From contig NZ_AP013028.1 in assembly GCF_000829315.1 (NCBI RefSeq), positions 1,050,001 to 1,082,000 on the forward strand: DNA of 32,000 nt. Reading direction: 5' to 3'. The position numbers and the translations under genes are program-made. This document shows, in pieces, positions 2,925-29,837 of this stretch. Each line of letters opens with the position of its first letter. Within the stretch, counting starts at the first letter, position 1. The notes beneath the pieces are model-generated. The model made no database searches, was not told the DNA's origin, and saw only the letters and a list, made by a program, of their open reading frames with translations. The stretch is from Wolbachia endosymbiont of Cimex lectularius. GTDB taxonomy: Bacteria > Pseudomonadota > Alphaproteobacteria > Rickettsiales > Anaplasmataceae.

Positions 2925-3372
2925 GCTTATAGAGCATCTCTAGATCCTGCTTACGATAGCTATAAGAAATTCACTGAAAAAAAGCAAAAGAAGCCCTGGT
3001 CGGTATTTATTTTTAGTATTGGCGTTTTTATGCCTTAAACGCTGAAATTTAGCTGCTTTTAAACGCAACTAGTCTAAGCTATAATATTTAAGAAATTTAC
3101 CAGGCAGAAAAAAAGGACAATAAAACCCCGAGGTAGCTAGTTATTCCACTCTCTATTTTAAAATCCGGCGTTGGGTGATGTCTTAAACGACTTATAAGCG
3201 CGTTTCAGCTTGTATGGGCAAAAACCCGAAGTTTTAAAAAGACATGCAGTGCACATAGTACGCCAAATACAAGTTTTCTTGTCATTTTAACCTGCACAGA
3301 TTGGGAAGTTAAACAAATAGCTTCAGTATCATTATAATGGGGTTGGAGGAATTTGTCAAGTAGTTTTTGCAT
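2925..3372 (-). repeat. Dispersed promoter-bearing intergenic repeat, copy A (long form with 3' tail module)
   Basis: The reverse complement aligns by eye with 15222-15625 and 7560-7872. Shared blocks include CTACTTGACAA, CTTATAAGTCGTTTAAGACA, CAAGCTGAAACGCGC and GGTAAATTTCTTAAATATT. No ORF longer than about 10 codons. Confidence 0.85.
3331..3359 (-). promoter_or_regulatory. Consensus sigma70-type promoter inside repeat copy A, firing toward the lolC/E-like gene
   Basis: On the minus strand: TTGACA (3359-3354), a 17-nt spacer (aattcctccaaccccat), then TATAAT (3336-3331). It is preceded by an A-rich tract. Confidence 0.6.
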
Positions 3373-3498
3373 TCTTGGTACACACTGCTCTTAAATCACA
3401 AGTTAAAAAGTTAAGATAAAGGTATAAAAATATGAGTTTTGTTTTGACTTTTTGTGCTAATTTTGCAGAATATTGAAATTATCACTTGGATTGAATGC

Positions 3499-7334: not shown

Positions 7335-7550
7335 TGCTTAACGCTGGAATCTAATGTCACTTTATAATGGTGTCTCCAAGTAGCCCCTTTTCCTGTCCTT
7401 CCAGTGCCCCTTTTTTGTCCTCCAAACACTCTTTTTTGTCATTCCAGTTTTCCATAAAACGGTGCGTTTCAACATAACTTTTATACTCACCTACTCGATA
7501 AAATTCCTGGATTCCAGCGTCACGCGCTTGAATGACACCCTTCACAGGCT
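7335..7550 (-). repeat. Short palindromic interspersed repeat block (copy E1)
   Basis: The reverse complement aligns with 16925-17180. Shared sequence is GGTGTCAT.CAAG...CTGGNATC.AGGAATTTTAT..AGT.GGTGAGTATAAAAGTTATGTT.AAA..C.CGTTTT. The track ORF 7357..7545 (..VIQARDAGIQ..) is read from this repeat and is probably not a gene. Confidence 0.75.
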
Positions 7551-7559
7551 TGTGAATTG

Positions 7560-7872
7560 CTTTAGCTATAAATATTAAGAAATTTACTAAGCAGAAAAAA
7601 AAGGCAAAAGAAACCCAGAGCAGCTAGTATTCAAATTCTCCCTTGTTCTATTTGACGTTCTATACTGTCTTAAACGACTTATAAGCGCATTTCAGCTTGT
7701 ATAGGTAAAAACCAGAAGTTTTAAAAAGACGTGAGGTGCACATAGTGCAAAAATTTAAACATGAGACGCCAAATACAAAGTTTCCTTTGTCATTTTAATC
7801 TGCAGATTGCGAAATTAAATGAATAACTCCATATCATTATAATGGGGTTGGTGAGATTTGTCAAGTAGTTTT
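7560..7872 (-). repeat. Dispersed promoter-bearing intergenic repeat, copy B (short form, lacks the 3' tail module)
   Basis: Aligns by eye with copies A and C, including the promoter block, CTTATAAGCGCATTTCAGCTTGTATAGG and the AAATTTCTTAATATTTATAGCTA end. Confidence 0.85.
7836..7864 (-). promoter_or_regulatory. Consensus sigma70-type promoter inside repeat copy B, firing toward the DUF1013 gene
   Basis: On the minus strand: TTGACA (7864-7859), a 17-nt spacer (aatctcaccaaccccat), TATAAT (7841-7836). An A8 tract lies upstream. Confidence 0.6.
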
Positions 7873-8036
7873 TTTTGTTTCTATGTTAGCTGCTTGCGTG
7901 ATATCCTTCTTGTAGACTTATGCTCGTGTAGTGCATAATTTGGTGTTGACTATATCTACAATGAAGCTCCCTAAAAACACTTTGTAATGGGTCAATTTCC
8001 GAGTATAAAGCAGAAATATCGCTATAATAACAAAGT

Positions 8037-15170: not shown

Positions 15171-15221
15171 AGCTTAATCTGGTTGTCATAACCTGGCAGT
15201 GGAGCTAGGCATACAGAAACG

Positions 15222-15625
15222 AAAAAACTACTTGACAACCTTCGCCGTTACCCTTATAATGATATTGAAGCTATTTATTTAACTTCCCAATCTGTGCACT
15301 GCATGTCTTTTTAAAACTTCGGGTTTTTACCCATACAAGCTGAAACGCGCTTATAAGTCGTTTAAGACATCACCCAACGCCGGATTTTAAAATAGAGAGT
15401 GGAATAACTAGCTACCTCGGGGTTTTATTGTCCTTTTCTTCTGCCTGGTAAATTTCTTAAATATTATAGCTTAGACTAGTTGCATTTAAAAGCAGCTAAA
15501 TTGCAGCGTTTAAGGCATAAAAACGCCAATATTAAAAATAAATACTGACCAGGGCTTCTTTTGCTTTTTTTCTCGCTTGGTAAATTTCTTAAATATTTAT
15601 TACTAAACCTAGATCCCAGATGCTG
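15222..15625 (+). repeat. Dispersed promoter-bearing intergenic repeat, copy C (long form; 43-nt internal deletion relative to A)
   Basis: Inverted relative to copies A and B, and near-identical to the reverse complement of A over most of its length. It contains an internal partial duplication ending twice in GGTAAATTTCTTAAATATT (15447-15465 and 15579-15597). Confidence 0.85.
15232..15260 (+). promoter_or_regulatory. Consensus sigma70-type promoter inside repeat copy C, firing toward ispDF
   Basis: TTGACA (15232-15237), a 17-nt spacer (accttcgccgttaccct), TATAAT (15255-15260), with an A-tract upstream. Confidence 0.6.
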
Positions 15626-16924: not shown

Positions 16925-17180
16925 GCTACTAGGAGGGTGTCATGCAAGTAGCTGACACTGGCATCTAGGAATTTTATTAAGTTGGTGAGTATAAAAGTTA
17001 TGTTAAAATACGACGTTTTGATGATTATGGAAAGGCTGGATCCCAGTGTCGGAGCACTGGGATGACACCGTCTGTTACGCAAATTACCTGCTAACTGCAA
17101 TGTTCGTACAGCTATGTGTCACGTGCTGGGATCATAAAGTGAAATGAGATGTATGCCCAGACGCTGGGCTGACCCAAGAA
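16925..17180 (+). repeat. Short palindromic interspersed repeat block (copy E2)
   Basis: Aligns with the reverse complement of 7335-7550. It contains a perfect 9-bp hairpin, ATCCCAGTG-tcggag-CACTGGGAT (17040-17063), and further CTGGGAT/CTGGGCT motifs. The track ORF 16885..17100 on the minus strand is read from this repeat. Confidence 0.75.
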
Positions 17181-20295: not shown

Positions 20296-22782
20296 ATGTT
20301 TATGTTAGAAGAAAAATACAGCTTTAAAGAAATTGAAGCCAAGTACAACATATTGTGGGAAAACAGCAAAATTTATAAATGGAGTGGTGAAAAGGATAAC
20401 ACTTTCACTATAGACACACCTCCACCGACGATATCGGGGAAATTGCATATCGGTCATATATTTAGCTATTGCCACACAGACTTCATTGCAAAGTTTCAGC
20501 GCATGCTGGGGAAAGATGTGTTTTATCCAATTGGGTTTGATGATAATGGGCTCCCTACTGAAAGATTGGTTGAACAAACCTATAAAACCCGTGCAAAGGA
20601 AGTTGGCAGAGAGAAATTTATAGAAATGTGCCACGAGGTTATTGAAAAATCAAAGCAGGAATTCAAGGAATTGTTTAAATCAGTTGGCATTAGCTATGAC
20701 TGGAGTTTGGAATATCACACGATCAGCAAGGAAACTGTGACGCTTTCTCAAATGTCATTTATTGACCTATATAACAAGGGGTATGCATACAGGAAGATGC
20801 AACCCATCCTTTGGGACCCGGTTGACAAAACCGCAATTGCGCAAGCAGAAATAGAGGATAAAGTCTTTGAGTCATCCTTAAACACAATAGTTTTTTCCAC
20901 TGAAGAAAATGAGCAGATCAAAATTGCAACTACGCGACCTGAGCTGCTTCCAGCATGCGTTGCAGTTTTTTGTCATCCAGAGGATGCGCGCTACATTCAT
21001 TTGATTGGAAAAACAGCTACAGTAGCAATAACAGGGGCAAAAGTTTCAATAATAGCTGATGATAAGGTCAAAATAGATAAAGGTACAGGACTGGTTATGT
21101 GCTGTACCTTCGGTGATGAGCTCGACATATACTGGCAGCAAAAGCATAACTTGCCGATGAAGATTATCATCGATCAGGATGGGAGGATAAGTCTAGATTC
21201 AGTGTGTGATAACAATAGATCCCAGTGTCAAGGCACTGGGATGACAAGTAGTGTACTAAATGGACTAAAGGTTAAAGAAGCAAGAAAGAGAATAATTGAA
21301 ATCCTGAGTGGAAAAGGACTTTTGATAGAGAGCACTAGCATTTCTCATTCTGTTAAGTGCGCAGAAAGATCTGGTGCACCACTTGAAATATTGCCTACTT
21401 ATCAATGGTTTATCAAGATCTTAGAGAAAAAAGCTAAAGTATTAGATAAAGTTAAGGAATGCAACTGGTATCCAGCTACTATGCGTAAACGCATGGAAGT
21501 GTGGATAGAAGGACTAAATTGGGACTGGTGCATCTCAAGGCAGCGTTATTTTGGTGTGCCATTTCCAGTGTGGTACTCAAAACGCAAAGGAGAAGAAGGC
21601 AAAATCATTCTAGCTGAAGTGAAGGATCTGCCTATAGATCCACTCAAGGATTTGCCAAAAGGGTATAGTAAGGAAGAAGTTATCCCGGATCAAGATGTGA
21701 TGGACACTTGGGCCACAAGTGCGATCACTCCCCAGCTAAGTGCACTGGCAGTAAACAATGAGTTTCACTTACCGAATCATCGCTATGACAAGATATTTCC
21801 TGCAGATCTGCGTAGCCAAAGCCATGAGATAATAAGAACTTGGGCTTTTTATACAATTTTGAAGGCACATTACCATGCAAACTCCCTGCCATGGAAAAAT
21901 ATCATGATCAGTGGTTGGTGTTTAGCTGATGATAAAAAAAAGATGAGTAAATCAAAAGGTAACGTCATCACTCCTCATGTAATACTTGAGACCTATGGGG
22001 CTGATGTAGTACGCTACTGGGCAGCAAACTCAAGGCTTGGAGTTGATACAGTTTACTCTGAAAATATATTCAGAATTGGTAAGCGCCTCGTTACAAAACT
22101 TTGGAATGCCAGCAAGTTTGTTTCCATGTTCATGGAAAAGCATCAAACAGTAAGCATAAATTCCATCAGTGAGACGATGGATAAATGGATATTGTCCAAG
22201 TTATACAAAGTGATAGATAGAGCAACGAACAACCTGTTGCAATTTGAATACTGCGAAGCTTTGGGGGCAATAGAGGAGTTTTTCTGGAAAGATTTTTGTG
22301 ATAACTACTTAGAGCTGGTGAAAAAACGTGCATATGGGGATGGGATAAACAGTGAAGCAAACTTGAGTGCTAAACAAAGTTTGGCATATGTATTAAACGT
22401 TATTTTGCGGTTATTTGCACCTTTTTTGCCGTACATTACGGAAGAGATATACCACCGGTTGTATAGCTATAATTCTGTGCATAATCAAAGCAATTGGCCA
22501 AGTAAAGAAGAACTTATCTATGATAAACATTCTGAAGAAATGGGAGACAATTCTGTGCAGATATTAAACCTTGTGAGGAAAATAAAGGCAGATAATAATA
22601 TGTCAGTTAAGCATTTGATAAAAAGATTGACAATAAAAGCGAACATACGAGAGGATAGGTTGAATCAATCTGCACAGGATGATTTGCAAACGGTTTGCAA
22701 TGCTGAAGTAATACAGTGGAGTGAGGATGTAACAGGATTTACAACTGAAAATGGAAAATTTACTGTAGGTGCAGAGTTATAA
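20296..22782 (+). CDS. valS: Valine--tRNA ligase
   Basis: 828 aa. The HIGH motif is PPTISGKLHIGH and the KMSKS motif is KKMSKSKGN. A class Ia editing domain lies between them. An alternative ATG is at 20302, with GGGGGA 5-6 nt upstream. Confidence 0.95.
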   Translation: MFMLEEKYSFKEIEAKYNILWENSKIYKWSGEKDNTFTIDTPPPTISGKLHIGHIFSYCHTDFIAKFQRMLGKDVFYPIGFDDNGLPTERLVEQTYKTRAKEVGREKFIEMCHEVIEKSKQEFKELFKSVGISYDWSLEYHTISKETVTLSQMSFIDLYNKGYAYRKMQPILWDPVDKTAIAQAEIEDKVFESSLNTIVFSTEENEQIKIATTRPELLPACVAVFCHPEDARYIHLIGKTATVAITGAKVSIIADDKVKIDKGTGLVMCCTFGDELDIYWQQKHNLPMKIIIDQDGRISLDSVCDNNRSQCQGTGMTSSVLNGLKVKEARKRIIEILSGKGLLIESTSISHSVKCAERSGAPLEILPTYQWFIKILEKKAKVLDKVKECNWYPATMRKRMEVWIEGLNWDWCISRQRYFGVPFPVWYSKRKGEEGKIILAEVKDLPIDPLKDLPKGYSKEEVIPDQDVMDTWATSAITPQLSALAVNNEFHLPNHRYDKIFPADLRSQSHEIIRTWAFYTILKAHYHANSLPWKNIMISGWCLADDKKKMSKSKGNVITPHVILETYGADVVRYWAANSRLGVDTVYSENIFRIGKRLVTKLWNASKFVSMFMEKHQTVSINSISETMDKWILSKLYKVIDRATNNLLQFEYCEALGAIEEFFWKDFCDNYLELVKKRAYGDGINSEANLSAKQSLAYVLNVILRLFAPFLPYITEEIYHRLYSYNSVHNQSNWPSKEELIYDKHSEEMGDNSVQILNLVRKIKADNNMSVKHLIKRLTIKANIREDRLNQSAQDDLQTVCNAEVIQWSEDVTGFTTENGKFTVGAEL

Positions 22783-23741: not shown

Positions 23742-23876
23742 TGCTACTATGTATCGTACATTAGGCTAGATATACAGAACTTAAGTAAGATCTACTGTCT
23801 TTCTGGAGTAAAAAAAAGTTGCAAAATGCAATATTATTCTTACAGTCTACAAAAAGATTATGCAAGGAGGTATACG

Positions 23877-24557
23877 ATGAACCCAATAATATGCGCACTA
23901 GACACACAAGATTTGAATGAGGCTGTATCTTTAGCTAATGCTCTACGTGATAAAGTTGGCATGTTAAAACTGGGATTAGAATTTTTTGCTGCTCATGGTC
24001 CTTCTGGAGTGAGGGAAGTTGCAAAGTGTAATATACCAATTTTTTTAGATCTGAAACTGCATGATATTCCAAACACTGTAGCTAAAACAGTTGAGGCAAT
24101 CAAGGCTTTGGGTGTTGAAATATTAACATTGCATATAAGCGGTGGAGCAAAAATGCTTGAAGAAGCTTTAAGTGTAGTGAAAGATGCAAAAATGAAACTG
24201 ATCGGAGTAACCGTGCTAACTAGTATGGGCAATGAGGATTTAAATGAGCTTGGAGTGACAAAAGAGGTGAAATCACAGGTAATTTTACTTGCAAAGCTCG
24301 CAAAAAAGATTGGGCTACATGGAATAGTTTGCCCTGCACTGGAAGCTCAGGAAGTGCGCAAAGAGTGCGGTAAAGACTTTACAATTATTACTCCGGGAAT
24401 TCGTGTAGACTCTGGTCACGATGACCAAAAAAGAACAGCAACACCAAAAGAAGCAATAAGTTCAGGAGCTGATTATGTCGTAATTGGTAGGCCCATTACA
24501 AAAAGTGACAGTCCTGCAAATAGTGCGGAATTAATATGGGAATCACTCATTAATTGA
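23877..24557 (+). CDS. pyrF: Orotidine 5'-phosphate decarboxylase
   Basis: The track ORF starts at 23826. The ATG at 23877 is preceded by AAGGAGG (23864-23870) and gives MNPIICALDT... The catalytic motif is FLDLKLHDIPNT, and the C-terminal part has ..YVVIGRPIT... Confidence 0.93.
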   Translation: MNPIICALDTQDLNEAVSLANALRDKVGMLKLGLEFFAAHGPSGVREVAKCNIPIFLDLKLHDIPNTVAKTVEAIKALGVEILTLHISGGAKMLEEALSVVKDAKMKLIGVTVLTSMGNEDLNELGVTKEVKSQVILLAKLAKKIGLHGIVCPALEAQEVRKECGKDFTIITPGIRVDSGHDDQKRTATPKEAISSGADYVVIGRPITKSDSPANSAELIWESLIN

Positions 24558-24585: not shown

Positions 24586-24614
24586 TTGACATGAAAAAAT
24601 AAACATTGTATAGT
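24586..24614 (+). promoter_or_regulatory. Strong promoter-like element downstream of pyrF, pointing at the IS left end
   Basis: TTGACA (24586-24591), a 17-nt spacer, TATAGT (24609-24614). It is followed by a perfect 8-bp palindrome, CACTTAAC-tta-GTTAAGTG (24639-24657). Confidence 0.5.
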
Positions 24615-24843
24615 ATTATCATCTTTCATATTTTTCCTCACTTAACTTAGTTAAGTGTTAAGTATTTAATAAGTTTGTGGTGTTACGTAAGTAGCACTAC
24701 ATGATTTTTCAGTTTATATTCTCAAAAATTAAGTTTTTTTCTATTTCATTGGATATACTCTATGATAAGAAAAATTTCTAAGAACCTGTTTAAAATCTTG
24801 GAAATGTGAGGTAAAGTAAGCATAGATTAATAATGAGGTGTCT

Positions 24844-25158
24844 ATGCAGAAAAGTTATCCAAGTAATATAAGTCAAGAGCAGTTTGAAAAAATCAGGCCA
24901 ATTTTGGAGAGTAGCAAGCAGAAAACAAAACCAAGAAAACTTGATTTGTATGACGTATTTTGTGGGGTGTTGTACGTCTTAAAAAGTGGTTGTCAGTGGA
25001 GGATGTTACCAAAGGGTTTTCCAAGATGGGAAAGCGTATATTACTATTTTCGAGTGTGGAGTAAAAAGAATGGAGAAGAGCCAAGCTTGTTGGAATTAGT
25101 CTTAAAAAAAATTAGTTGGAGAGGTCCGTATCAGCAATGGTCGGAAAGAGAAAACTAG
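24844..25158 (+). CDS. IS5-family transposase, N-terminal (DNA-binding) reading frame, copy 1
   Basis: MQKSYPSNISQEQFEKIRPIL...CQWRMLPKGFPRWESVYYYFRVW is a typical IS5-family N-terminal domain. The frame stops at 25156-25158. Confidence 0.85.
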   Translation: MQKSYPSNISQEQFEKIRPILESSKQKTKPRKLDLYDVFCGVLYVLKSGCQWRMLPKGFPRWESVYYYFRVWSKKNGEEPSLLELVLKKISWRGPYQQWSEREN

Positions 25159-25633
25159 CTTTTGTATAATTGATTCTCAAAGCGTTAAAAACGCAGATAC
25201 TGCTGAAAAAAAAGGCTATGATGCAGGTAAAAAGATTTCAGGGATAAAGCGCCATATTGCAGTTGATACACAAGGTTTGCCACATGCAATTTATGTAACA
25301 ACGGCAGAAGCAACTGACCGTAGCAGTGCTGTGAAAATGGTCGAAAATGCTAAAGCAAACCTCTCTGAAGTTAAAAACATACTGGTTGATGCTGGCTACA
25401 CAGGAGAAAATTTTGCAACACAAATAAAAGCTATCATTGGTGCGACTGTTGAAGTAATAAAGCGAAGTGAGTTACACACTTTCGTCGTATTGCCAAAAAG
25501 ATGGGTTGTTGAACGCTCTTTTGCCTGGTTAGAAAAGTGCAGGCGATTGTGGAAAAATTGCGAGCGGAAGCTCAACACTAGCTTACAGATGATAGTCCTC
25601 TCCTTCATTTCTCTCCTGTTACGAAGATTTTAA
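25106..25633 (+). CDS. IS5-family transposase, catalytic DDE reading frame, copy 1 (no start codon of its own; needs a frame change in the A8 tract at 25104-25111)
   Basis: The frame is open from 25106. It reads KKLVGEVRISNGRKEKTSFCIIDSQSVKNADTAEKKGYDAGKKISGIKRHIAVDTQG..., continuous through the second A8 tract (25206-25213) to the stop at 25631-25633. Confidence 0.8.
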   Translation, partial: KKLVGEVRISNGRKEKTSFCIIDSQSVKNADTAEKKGYDAGKKISGIKRHIAVDTQGLPHAIYVTTAEATDRSSAVKMVENAKANLSEVKNILVDAGYTGENFATQIKAIIGATVEVIKRSELHTFVVLPKRWVVERSFAWLEKCRRLWKNCERKLNTSLQMIVLSFISLLLRRF

Positions 25634-25642
25634 ACAGGTTCT

Positions 25643-27389
25643 CAGAGGGCAAAAGAGTTGCTTGAACGGGCTTTAGCAATTTACGAGAAACATTATGGCT
25701 CTGACCATCTCAAAGCTGCTGGAGCACTGACAAATCTAAGTAACGTCTACCATGCTTTAGGTAATCCTCGGAAACAAAAAGAATTGCTTGAACAGGTCTT
25801 ATCTGTTTTTGAAGAACATTATGGTTCTGATCATTTTCAAGTTGCTACCATACTGGCAAATCTTGGTATCGCTTATGGGAATTTAGGTAATTATAAGAAA
25901 GCAAAAGAGCTGTTTGAACAGACTTTAGCAATTTACGAAAAACATTATGGCCCTGATCATTTTCAAGTTGCTGAGACGCTGACAAAGCTAGGTAATACTT
26001 ATTATGCTTTAGGTGATCCTCGGAAAGCAAAAGAATTGCTTGAACAAGCTCTACCTATTCTTGAGAAACACTATGATCCTAGCCACTTTCAAGTTGCTAC
26101 ACTACTAGCAGACCTAGGTAATGCTTATGGAGATTTAGGCGATCATAAGAGAAAAAAGGAGTTGCTCGAACAGGTTTTACCTATTCTTGAGAAATATTAT
26201 AATCCTGATCATTTTCAAGTTGCTGCGTTACTGATAAACCTAGGCAATGCTTATTATGCTTTAGGTGATCCTCAGAAAGCAAAAGAGTTGCTTGAACGGG
26301 CTTTGGCAATTCAAAAGAAACATTATGGTTCTGATCATTTCAAAGTTGCTATTACGCTAACGAATCTTAGTAACGCTTATCATGCTTTAGGTGATCCTCA
26401 GAAGACAAAAGAGTTGCTTGAACGGGCCTTACTTATCTTGAATCAGCATTGTAGCCCTGACCATTTTGAAGCTGCCAAAACACTGGCAAACCTTGGTAAT
26501 GCTTATGGGGATTTAGGTGAATACGAAAAACAAAAGGAGTTACTTGAACAGGCTTTACCTATTTTTGAGAAACACTACGGCTTTGATCATTTTCAAGTAG
26601 CCATTGGATTGACAAACCTCAGTACCGCTTATCATGCTTTAGGTGACTATAAGAAACAAAAGGAGTTGCTTGAACGGGCTTTAACAATTAAAGAAAAACA
26701 TTATGGATCTGATCATTTTCAAGTGGCCATTGAACTGACAAACCTCGGTACCGCTTATAGCGCTTTAAGCGATCATAAGAAAGCAAAAGAGTTGCTTGAA
26801 CAGGCTTTAGCAATTGACAAGAAATATTATGGTTCTGATCACTTTCAAGTGGCTATTATATTAGAAAACCTGGGTATCACTTATGGCACTTTAGGTAATC
26901 ATAAGAAACAAAAGGAATTGCTTGAACGTGCTTTAGCAATTAATGAAAAATACTATGGTCCTGATCATCTTCAAGTTGCTAGGACGCTGATAAATCTAGG
27001 CATCGCTTATGGAGATTTAGGTGAACATGAAAAACAAAAGGGGTTGCTTGAAAGTGCTTTACCCATTTTTGAGAAACATTATGGCTCTGACCGTTTTCAA
27101 GTTGCTAAACTACTGGCAAACCTAGGTATCACTTATGGCGCTTTGAGTGATCATAAGAAACAAAAGGAGTTACTTGAGCAGGCTTTACCTATCTTTAAGA
27201 AACATTACGACCCTGATCATTTCGAAGTTGCTAAACTACTGATAAACCTGAGTATTGCTTATGGTGCTTTAGGTGACCATGAGAAACAAAAAATGTTGTT
27301 TGAGAGAGCTTTACCTATCATTAAGAAACATTATAGCTCTGATCGTTTTTGAAGTTGCTAAACTACTGGCAGAATTAGACAAAGTTTAG
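25643..27389 (+). pseudogene. TPR-repeat protein remnant (about 13 tandem 42-aa / 126-nt kinesin-light-chain-like TPR units), 5'-truncated by the IS and frameshifted 12 codons before its natural stop
   Basis: The repeat frame (..QRAKELLERALAIYEKHYGSDH..) runs straight out of the IS right end with no start or upstream region. At 27346-27350 the string CGTTTTTGA has one more nucleotide than the equivalent CATTTCGAA of the other units, which creates a TGA at 27350. Restoring the frame gives ..EVAKLLAELDKV and a stop at 27387-27389. Confidence 0.85.
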
Positions 27390-28600: not shown

Positions 28601-28758
28601 AAAACAACCTTTCGTACAAACTTGCTATAATTTTATACATGAAAAGAACCATATAATAAACTAATAAATTTTTTTATCATTTAGAAGTGAAAAACGGATA
28701 ACATACTCCTAAATGCCATTCTAAGTATATTCTACCCATAAAAACGGAAAAAAACTAC

Positions 28759-28787
28759 TTGACAACCTTCGTCAGTCCCCTTACAAT
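28759..28787 (+). promoter_or_regulatory. Fourth copy of the repeat-family promoter module (copy D), separated from downstream DNA by IS copy 2
   Basis: AAAAAACTACTTGACA (TTGACA at 28759-28764), a 17-nt spacer (accttcgtcagtcccct), TACAAT (28782-28787). The upstream 25 nt are nearly identical to copy C. The IS begins 19 nt after the -10 element. Confidence 0.5.
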
Positions 28788-28805
28788 AGAGTTGTGGGTG
28801 TCTTA

Positions 28806-29666
28806 GAACCTGTTTAAAATCTTGGAAATGTGAGGTAAAGTAAGCATAGATTAATAATGAGGTGTCTATGCAGAAAAGTTATCCAAGTAATATAAGTCAA
28901 GAGCAGTTTGAAAAAATCAGGCCAATTTTGGAGAGTAGCAAGCAGAAAACAAAACCAAGAAAACTTGATTTGTATGACGTATTTTGTGGGGTGTTGTACG
29001 TCTTAAAAAGTGGTTGTCAGTGGAGGATGTTACCAAAGGGTTTTCCAAGATGGGAAAGCGTATATTACTATTTTCGAGTGTGGAGTAAAAAGAATGGAGA
29101 AGAGCCAAGCTTGTTGGAATTAGTCTTAAAAAAAATTAGTTGGAGAGGTCCGTATCAGCAATGGTCGGAAAGAGAAAACTAGCTTTTGTATAATTGATTC
29201 TCAAAGCGTTAAAAACGCAGATACTGCTGAAAAAAAAAGGCTATGATGCAGGTAAAAAGATTTCAGGGATAAAGCGCCATATTGCAGTTGATACACAAGG
29301 TTTGCCACATGCAATTTATGTAACAACGGCAGAAGCAACTGACCGTAGCAGTGCTGTGAAAATGGTCGAAAATGCTAAAGCAAACCTCTCTGAAGTTAAA
29401 AACATACTGGTTGATGCTGGCTACACAGGAGAAAATTTTGCAACACAAATAAAAGCTATCATTGGTGCGACTGTTGAAGTAATAAAGCGAAGTGAGTTAC
29501 ACACTTTCGTCGTATTGCCAAAAAGATGGGTTGTTGAACGCTCTTTTGCCTGGTTAGAAAAGTGCAGGCGATTGTGGAAAAATTGCGAGCGGAAGCTCAA
29601 CACTAGCTTACAGATGATAGTCCTCTCCTTCATTTCTCTCCTGTTACGAAGATTTTAAACAGGTTC
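28806..29666 (+). mobile_element. IS5-family insertion sequence, copy 2 (861 bp), same orientation as copy 1
   Basis: It is identical to copy 1 at every position I compared and in the translated ORFs. The only difference is A9 (29230-29238) where copy 1 has A8, which puts the DDE domain in two frames (the track ORF 29194..29658 starts out of frame). Flanks are TTA on the left and TAA on the right. Confidence 0.92.
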
Positions 29667-29837
29667 TAAGATAAATTAATAAAGAGTACTTTTTGCCTAC
29701 AACTGAAGGTTTAGGCAAATTTATGGTTTGTTCTACTTGGATGACACATCACTGGTCCTAAAATCACAATGTTTGTGTAATTTCAGTAGCAGGTTGCTTG
29801 AGTCCGTACTATTATATAGTATAATACTATATAAAAT

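Follow-up and report, generated by a model that had tools for sequence, protein, structure and literature searches.

The stretch of DNA described here (the window) comprises 32,000 nucleotides (nt) from the Wolbachia endosymbiont of Cimex lectularius (assembly GCF_000829315.1, contig NZ_AP013028.1, positions 1,050,001 to 1,082,000 of the forward strand) and carries three full copies (A, B and C) and one promoter stub (D) of a dispersed intergenic repeat. Judged by its sequence, this element is a diverged member of the A-supergroup repeat motif (ARM) family, 71-83% identical to the copies in Wolbachia wMel, in a Wolbachia outside supergroup A. We consider it probable (approximately 70%) that each full copy of this ARM-type repeat is a self-contained non-coding transcription unit. 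Although the repeat was already known, earlier descriptions covered neither its promoter-led transcription-unit anatomy nor its occurrence outside supergroup A.

The feature is real and not a product of chance. The window contains exactly three perfect TTGACA-N17-TATAAT sites (3331-3359 and 7836-7864 on the minus strand and 15232-15260 on the plus strand), all of which lie in the repeat, against 0.01 expected from shuffled sequences; copies A, B and C each match the sigma-70 consensus at 12/12 hexamer positions with 17-nt spacing. The sequence AAAACTACTTGACAA occurs four times (0.01 expected), with the fourth occurrence (28751-28765) belonging to copy D. A first-pass annotation of the window, made by a model from the letters alone, had reported three full copies that share long near-identical blocks and each carry this perfect promoter, and both statements hold: the bodies of copies A and C are 98% identical over 280 nt, and copy B is 77-78% identical to either. 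Its loci were correct, while its boundaries (2925-3372, 7560-7872 and 15222-15625) are replaced by those in Table 1. Outside the repeat family, a promoter-like A-tract followed by TTGACA-17-TATAGT is present at 24586-24614, downstream of the gene at 23826-24557.

A family sample was drawn using an exact 21-mer from the body (GCTTATAAGTCGTTTAAGACA) as a probe. This retrieved at least 120 loci, many at contig ends, from Wolbachia of Mansonella, Paracimex, louse, cicada and flea beetle as well as from 'Rickettsiales' metagenome-assembled genomes (MAGs); an nhmmer profile search of these loci gave 200 matches, 119 including the promoter (in copy C, the match covers 15195-15478, with a second unit besides). 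Among 73 extended copies, similarity starts approximately 15 nt upstream of the -35 (AGAAAC, A-tract, CTAC) and stops approximately 460 nt further on, at ...GGTAAATTTCTTAAATATT; the extent of copy C was set from this conservation profile and from the alignment of copies. Pairwise similarity anchored on the promoter mostly ends 20-30 nt upstream of the -35 end. Some subfamilies have an extra upstream module of 40-90 nt (TAGACTTCTTGCATA...GGCAGCG) that resembles the module between the tail units, and on its downstream side the element often abuts short Wolbachia repeats, notably GGATCCCAGT...ACTGGGATGACA palindromes. A second set of loci was retrieved independently of the element, via TsaD orthologues. 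Full copies were present in OZ034760.1, CP051157.1 and CP061738.1 and degenerate copies in CP034333.1 (locus L127), which we take to be wBm; loci L128, L129 and L130 hold copies, and one 21-kb locus of this set contained no copy. One of the L128 copies immediately follows ispH, a position shared by the wMel copy IGR-1047 (discussed below). The family is old and genus-wide.

Within the family, conservation is highest in the promoter. In the unanchored family profile, the majority base reaches at least 90% at each position of the -35. In the set anchored on TTGAC, this pentamer is kept in register in 109/118 copies, and, against an upstream background of 0.42, the mean top-base frequency is 0.87 for the A-tract and 5' edge, 0.86 for the -10, 0.69 for the spacer and 0.68 for positions +1 to +25. 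The -10 follows TAnnAT across approximately 110 copies; at the fixed 17-nt spacing (n = 82), the versions include TATCAT (37), TATAAT (15), TATTAT (7) and TACCAT (5). The spacer exists in 80 versions among 109 promoter modules, which bears out the earlier proposal that hexamers and spacing are kept while the spacer varies. A degenerate wBm copy retains TTGACA-17-TATTAT.

Transcripts that begin at this promoter have been mapped in wMel. Two 5' rapid amplification of cDNA ends (RACE) clones of candidate intergenic small RNAs, IGR-1021 (WD1243/WD1244, 5' end 1,190,012) and IGR-1047 (ispH/WD1275, 5' end 1,216,539) (Woolfit et al. 2015, PMC4349823, supplement Table C), are family transcripts. Their inserts open with GAAGGCATTCAG... 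and GAAGCTATTGTATTT... (GAAGG/GAAGC), respectively, and these starts align with the G of GAAGCTATTT, 7 nt past the -10 in copies A and C; the IGR-1047 clone is approximately 290 nt long and spans tail unit 1. As a cross-check of the boundary between adapter and insert, the RACE insert and the Cappable-seq RNA of ncrwmel02 both begin with AGAGTTTAGAGGG. (Neither ncrwmel01 nor ncrwmel02 is itself a member of the family, as their sequences differ from it.) Three primary starts in the wMelPop-CLA Cappable-seq tables, reported as orphan or internal (131390, 1067756 and 713865; Suliman et al. 2025, PMC12558409), likewise have family promoters (e.g. AAAGATTACTTGACAAGCTTCGCCAGCCCTCTTATCAT) and family RNAs: 131390 and 713865 begin at the same G as the RACE clones, and 1067756 begins 1 nt upstream. 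In total, 4/5 mapped 5' ends in the wMel homologues fall on the G 7 nt past the -10 and 1/5 falls 1 nt upstream, and alignment of the five sequences with the copies in the window gives identities of 71-83% (E 1e-9 to 1e-39). Unlike the present analysis, both studies treated these transcripts as separate loci and did not tie them to any repeat.

By homology, the starts in the window would be G15267 (copy C), 3324 (copy A) and 7829 (copy B), and copies A to C are predicted to be transcribed. The mapped ends in wMel are thus where the first-pass annotation would put them in proposing that the promoter fires into a conserved body, and its distances to the next start codons (504 nt for the lolC/E-like gene, 645 nt for the DUF1013 gene and 423 nt for ispDF) are correct if transcription starts 7 nt past the -10. 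We also suspect, from inspection by eye, that the wAlbB start 1049602 (with a similar promoter and GAAGGT...ATCTTC...CTGCAG) represents a diverged member.

ARM was described as a 440-base pair (bp) intergenic motif with 24 near-identical copies in wMel, tied to VNTR-105 and VNTR-141, two loci with a variable number of tandem repeats (VNTR) (the intergenic region holding VNTR-105 contains ARM), reported absent from supergroups B, C and D by megablast, and serving only as a sensitive polymerase chain reaction (PCR) target with no assigned function (Schneider et al. 2014, PMC4029913). The ARM-F primer (TTCGCCAATCTGCAGATTAAA), located within the 5' portion of the transcribed region, has an exact match in the wMel clone IGR-1047; alignment of this clone with copy B covers 265 nt (72% identity, E 6e-23), and the primer itself matches copy B at 20/21 bases with one deletion (7794-7813). 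On these grounds we assign the window element to ARM. For the ARM-R primer, matches did not rise above noise level. Like ARM, the window element is approximately 440 bp long, multicopy, dispersed and intergenic, with a tail prone to tandem duplication. In contrast, ARM was published as a supergroup A-restricted PCR target, without promoter, transcript or function, and the window comes from a Wolbachia outside supergroup A, to which cimicid-bug MAGs and wMoz are the nearest records. The published restriction does not hold: copies are found in wMoz, in cimicid and louse Wolbachia and in other lineages. These copies outside supergroup A widen the family and do not exclude membership. The first-pass annotation had not recognised the element; although as a DNA repeat it already had a name, the narrower statement that it belongs to no known RNA family stands, as an Rfam scan gave no match at the gathering score (at E<=10, only a chance match to InvR, with 24 bits against 60 needed).

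With respect to the VNTR loci of wMel (Riegler et al. 2012, PMC3287509), the tail of copy C carries a 132-nt period twice, and Tandem Repeats Finder detected no expanded array in the window and no VNTR-like tail expansions in the sampled loci. The published VNTR-141 reverse primer resembles the module between the tail units (module X) by eye and has no window match at up to 4 edits; the VNTR link consequently comes from the papers and not from an alignment of loci. Two short 'hypothetical protein' genes of wMel, WD_RS06600 and WD_RS07045, are annotated on ARM copies (PMC12558409 Table S1), and these gene calls are probably spurious because one mapped start falls within such a coding sequence.

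The copies are kept similar by gene conversion. The orthologous gatB-side loci L119 and L044 match copy A at 92-98% identity across its 5' flank, -35 and spacer; beyond approximately the -10, their identity to copy A is only approximately 75%, whereas copies A and C are 98-100% identical there (2976-3340 vs 15267-15572; L119:7460-8000 and L044:4070-4640). As this mosaic pattern shows, the transcribed part of copy A was overwritten by C-type sequence. The spacer does fall into two versions, one in copies A and B and the other in C and D, as the first-pass annotation described; it took them as a sign of conserved promoter function, and conversion between copies is a better explanation than independent selection on four loci, since an overwritten copy A accounts for two spacer versions with identical hexamers. 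Gene conversion would also account for the homogeneity of the family without a transposase.

The predicted RNA shows candidate local structures and no global fold. In its 5' stem (GAAGCUA/UAGCUUC), six pairs are kept across 82 copies, while the central pair is formed in 31 copies (C-G 16, G-U 13, G-C 2) and mismatched in 43 (C.A 25, C.U 18); A-to-G changes on the 5' side are always opposite U. The central block is the most conserved segment of the body, a conservation that is partly forced by the 21-mer probe, and a CGCTTA-loop-TAAGCG hairpin with a 5-9 bp stem and varying loops is also found in the diverged copies of wMel, L128, L130 and wBm. The 5' and central hairpins are therefore partially supported. 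Copies A and C both have a 10-nt segment closing the central block (TTTAAGACAT) that is complementary at 9/10 positions to the tail unit (ATTTCTTAAA), the segments being 15361-15370 and 15452-15461 in copy C and 3178-3187 and 3087-3096 in copy A; this putative pairing is invariant on both sides. A search for trans targets of 11-mers within the window gave AT-rich matches at chance level, none involving the conserved block. Two tail units are present in 23/62 full copies, 124-195 nt apart. We rejected these units as intrinsic terminators: a terminator scan found no GC-rich hairpin followed by a U-run in them, and the mean minimum free energy (MFE) of 116 units is -5.1 kcal/mol, compared with -6.2 kcal/mol for shuffled sequences. 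Such poor terminators are consistent with read-through in wMel, where the IGR-1021 transcript was scored by reverse transcription PCR as not ending within the intergenic region (PMC4349823).

From these results we propose the following model. The A-tract and near-consensus sigma-70 promoter would recruit RNA polymerase, and transcription would begin at the G 7 nt past the -10; the RNA would open with the short 5' stem-loop, carry the conserved central hairpin block and then enter one or two pyrimidine-rich tail units. As poor terminators these units presumably leak, and part of the transcription would continue downstream, into ispDF for copy C and into genes in sense or antisense elsewhere. 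Gene conversion between loci, and not a recognisable transposase, would keep the copies similar, and selection would preserve the RNA or the act of transcription itself.

The position of the copies relative to genes argues for such a unit. Among the 73 copies with a callable downstream gene, 37 have the same orientation as that gene and 36 the opposite, the four flank configurations are used 17, 17, 15 and 17 times, and 0/119 copies overlap an open reading frame (ORF) of at least 120 amino acids (aa); random orientation together with the absence of long-ORF overlap indicates a self-contained transcription unit and not a dedicated leader of neighbouring genes. The first-pass annotation had offered a promoter/leader cassette aimed at the next gene, to be abandoned if orientation were random, which is what was found. 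A mobile cassette that exists to give a strong promoter and 5' leader to the downstream gene (lolCE, trcR/DUF1013 or ispDF) would fit the three full window copies, which face gene starts 420-650 nt away, as well as the lack of a strong terminator and the transcript of IGR-1021 in wMel. Balanced orientation makes it distinctly improbable, however, as do convergent intergenic regions (which hold no drivable gene), found as frequently as the other types, and flanks in which the housekeeping genes are unrelated to one another and no protein family recurs (the largest cluster, of orthologous gatB genes, numbers 4). It is also quite unlikely that the repeat is a decaying selfish mobile element, MITE-like (a miniature inverted-repeat transposable element) or the solo end of a larger element, in which the promoter is a relic with no present role. 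The high copy number, strictly intergenic location and differing loci between genomes are as expected of such an element, as are the assemblies that break at the repeat and its frequent position beside other short repeats, and the wMel genome paper describes repeat families with 'hallmarks of mobile elements' that are unlike known elements. Yet a relic promoter should decay fastest, and here it is the best conserved part, wBm included. Moreover, no transposase, TnpB, recombinase or other neighbouring ORF recurs in the flanks; the only match in phage and plasmid collections was a partial one of 79 nt at the margin of a WO prophage record, with none from plasmids; and no group II intron or other Rfam match was found. 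The MITE reading was rejected because terminal inverted repeats common to copies A, B and C are lacking, and the two ends of the family (AGAAAC-A-tract-CTAC... and ...GGTAAATTTCTTAAATATT) show no complementarity. An IS110 bridge RNA and an IS200-IS605 omega RNA were set aside as there is no adjacent recombinase or TnpB gene. Correia elements are MITEs of 100-155 bp with 26-bp terminal inverted repeats and TA duplications. The Correia/NEMIS repeats of Neisseria resemble the ARM-type element in being dispersed and intergenic with a functional promoter able to transcribe into neighbours; in contrast, the ARM-type element is 330-470 bp long and lacks terminal inverted repeats. Among the probe-selected loci, all orthologous pairs are filled and none offers an empty site, and synteny in the loci retrieved via TsaD is too scrambled for such a comparison.

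The first-pass annotation had seen no ORF above approximately 10 codons, which holds for copy C and fails for copies A and B, where ATG ORFs of 32 codons (3068-3256) and 27 codons (7660-7744) end in ...YKLKRAYKSFKT. An ORF of 26-55 codons that starts with ATG and reads the conserved block as YKLKRAYKSFKT is present in 49/90 copies, and the wMel IGR-1021 clone, read from its sequence, encodes MCTLCLHNILGFYLHKLKRAYKSFKTV; a candidate ending of the small-ORF peptide is ...YKLKRAYKSFKTV. The repeat might accordingly be a small-protein gene, possibly type I toxin-antitoxin-like, whose promoter drives an mRNA for a peptide of 27-37 aa that ends in the basic sequence YKLKRAYKSFKT(V); the DNA block with the highest conservation would then encode its C-terminal part. 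The Ldr and Sib/Ibs type I toxin loci were first noticed as dispersed intergenic repeats, and LDR/Ldr-Rdl and QUAD/Sib-Ibs are repeats of this kind with conserved promoters and a short ORF, features that these E. coli systems share with ARM. Unlike them, ARM has no coding signature, conserved hydrophobic peptide or detected antisense RNA: the three codon positions hold similar numbers of variable sites (8/7/7 and 9/9/5), and the ratio of nonsynonymous to synonymous polymorphism (pN/pS) is 0.7-1.1, no better than in wrong frames. The ORF is missing in 41/90 copies and, entirely, in copy C; an 11-nt indel makes its N-terminal half wholly different from one subfamily to another; neither a clear hydrophobic helix nor a Shine-Dalgarno sequence is seen; and only 3 matches were found among 5.8 billion proteins. 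The wMelPop-CLA Cappable-seq tables, from which multi-mapping reads had been filtered, list no antisense start, and the antisense promoter candidate in copy C is a weak minus-strand match (TTTAAA-16-TATAAT, 15490-15463). We therefore regard a small-protein gene as very improbable. Several points also weigh against the non-coding transcription unit that we favour. The start in the window strain is placed by homology only; the Cappable-seq levels in wMelPop-CLA are modest (40-69 counts per million), multi-mapping reads having been discarded by the authors (PMC12558409); and sampling with the 21-mer inflates the conservation of the central block. Folding of the whole transcript is no better than that of shuffled sequence (MFE z 0.06 and 0.40), and RNAalifold on 82 copies gave -5.3 kcal/mol with 7 invariant pairs and no covariation. 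The tail units have no terminator-like stability, so that a discrete RNA product is only putative. Of the earlier suggestion of a multi-copy small RNA gene, the promoter-led non-coding transcription unit is retained and a conserved global RNA structure is not.

ARM-type elements could also be non-coding RNA genes, promoter-led and co-regulated, that number tens per genome across all Wolbachia and in which the RNA or its transcription has a cellular role, which we consider unlikely; examples would be a stress- or temperature-responsive regulator, or an RNA sponge, in a genome from which most protein regulators have been lost. If true, such a role would account for two observations: no part of the element is better conserved than the promoter, the reduced wBm genome included, and expression of some wMelPop-CLA copies changes under the tested stress conditions. 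Apart from any such role, recognition of the ARM-type transcription unit joins three Wolbachia literatures: on ARM as a PCR target, on VNTR loci used for typing, and on orphan or internal starts and candidate intergenic RNAs. The presence of the family beyond supergroup A bears on the specificity of ARM-based diagnostics. The pervasive antisense and read-through transcription reported for Wolbachia could plausibly stem from tens of randomly oriented near-consensus promoters, and future genetic tools for Wolbachia could draw on the promoter itself, which is compact, strong and naturally validated. Conversion between copies provides a concrete case of concerted evolution in an endosymbiont genome.

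Table 1. Positions of the ARM-type copies in the window and of the parts of copy C.
Feature	Position	Strand	Remarks
Copy A	2959-3373	-	-35 at 3354-3359, -10 at 3331-3336, predicted start 3324
Copy B	7557-7882	-	-35 at 7859-7864, -10 at 7836-7841, predicted start 7829
Copy C, ARM-type repeat: promoter, transcribed body and two tail units	15215-15610	+	
Copy D, promoter stub	28732-28787	+	TTGACA 28759-28764, TACAAT 28782-28787
Conserved 5' edge of copy C: AGAAAC, A-tract, CTAC (UP-element-like)	15215-15231	+	
-35 hexamer TTGACA	15232-15237	+	
-10 hexamer TATAAT	15255-15260	+	spacer 17 nt
Predicted transcription start, G of GAAGC	15267	+	7 nt past -10; placed by homology
5'-terminal stem-loop GAAGCTA..TAACTTC	15267-15286	+	C-A mismatch in copy C
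Central conserved block ACAAGCTGAAACGCGCTTATAAGTCGTTTAAGACA	15335-15369	+	CGCTTA..TAAGCG-type hairpin or palindrome
Tail unit 1: G-run, pyrimidine tract, GGTAAATTTCTTAAATATT	15420-15465	+	direct repeat, 132-nt spacing
Inter-unit module X, TAGACTAGTTGCAT..GCAGCGTTTAAGG..	15466-15551	+	resembles module upstream of many promoters
Tail unit 2	15552-15597	+	direct repeat of tail unit 1

The copies differ in completeness. Copy C has an internal deletion of approximately 60 nt, and copy B has a single tail unit followed by a palindromic repeat. Copy D is cut 13 nt past its -10, approximately 7 nt into the transcribed part, by an IS5-family insertion sequence (IS) element that starts at 28801; its promoter now points outward into the IS, and no repeat body is found beyond the IS, the remainder having been lost or moved. 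The window genes include a WD_0702-family protein, lolCE, gatB, a fused ispDF and sucB. JBPETB010000004.1 also encodes proteins identical to those of the window, as do several draft assemblies in which contigs terminate within the repeat: in the draft loci L122-L125, which encode the same 627-aa protein, contigs begin within copy B and finish within copy C. The repeat thus interrupts short-read assemblies of this strain and explains draft assembly breaks at copy sites.

Short palindromes make up a second intergenic repeat family (GATCCCAGTGTC..GCACTGGGATGACA and GTCATTCAAGCGCGTGACGCTGGAATCC), found at 7456-7541, 16934-17019, 17039-17067 and 21218-21246; in other genomes, such palindromes frequently lie directly after the ARM tail. 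The window also contains two near-identical IS5-family elements (24777-25646 and 28801-29671), which have imperfect terminal inverted repeats of 49 nt and a transposase divided between two ORFs, and this pair brackets a tetratricopeptide repeat (TPR) gene and sucB in the manner of a composite transposon. The TPR-repeat ORF (25658-27352, 564 aa) is formed by 13.6 tandem copies of a 126-bp (42-aa) unit at 25649-27360, and its 5' end is probably truncated, as it begins immediately after the IS copy.

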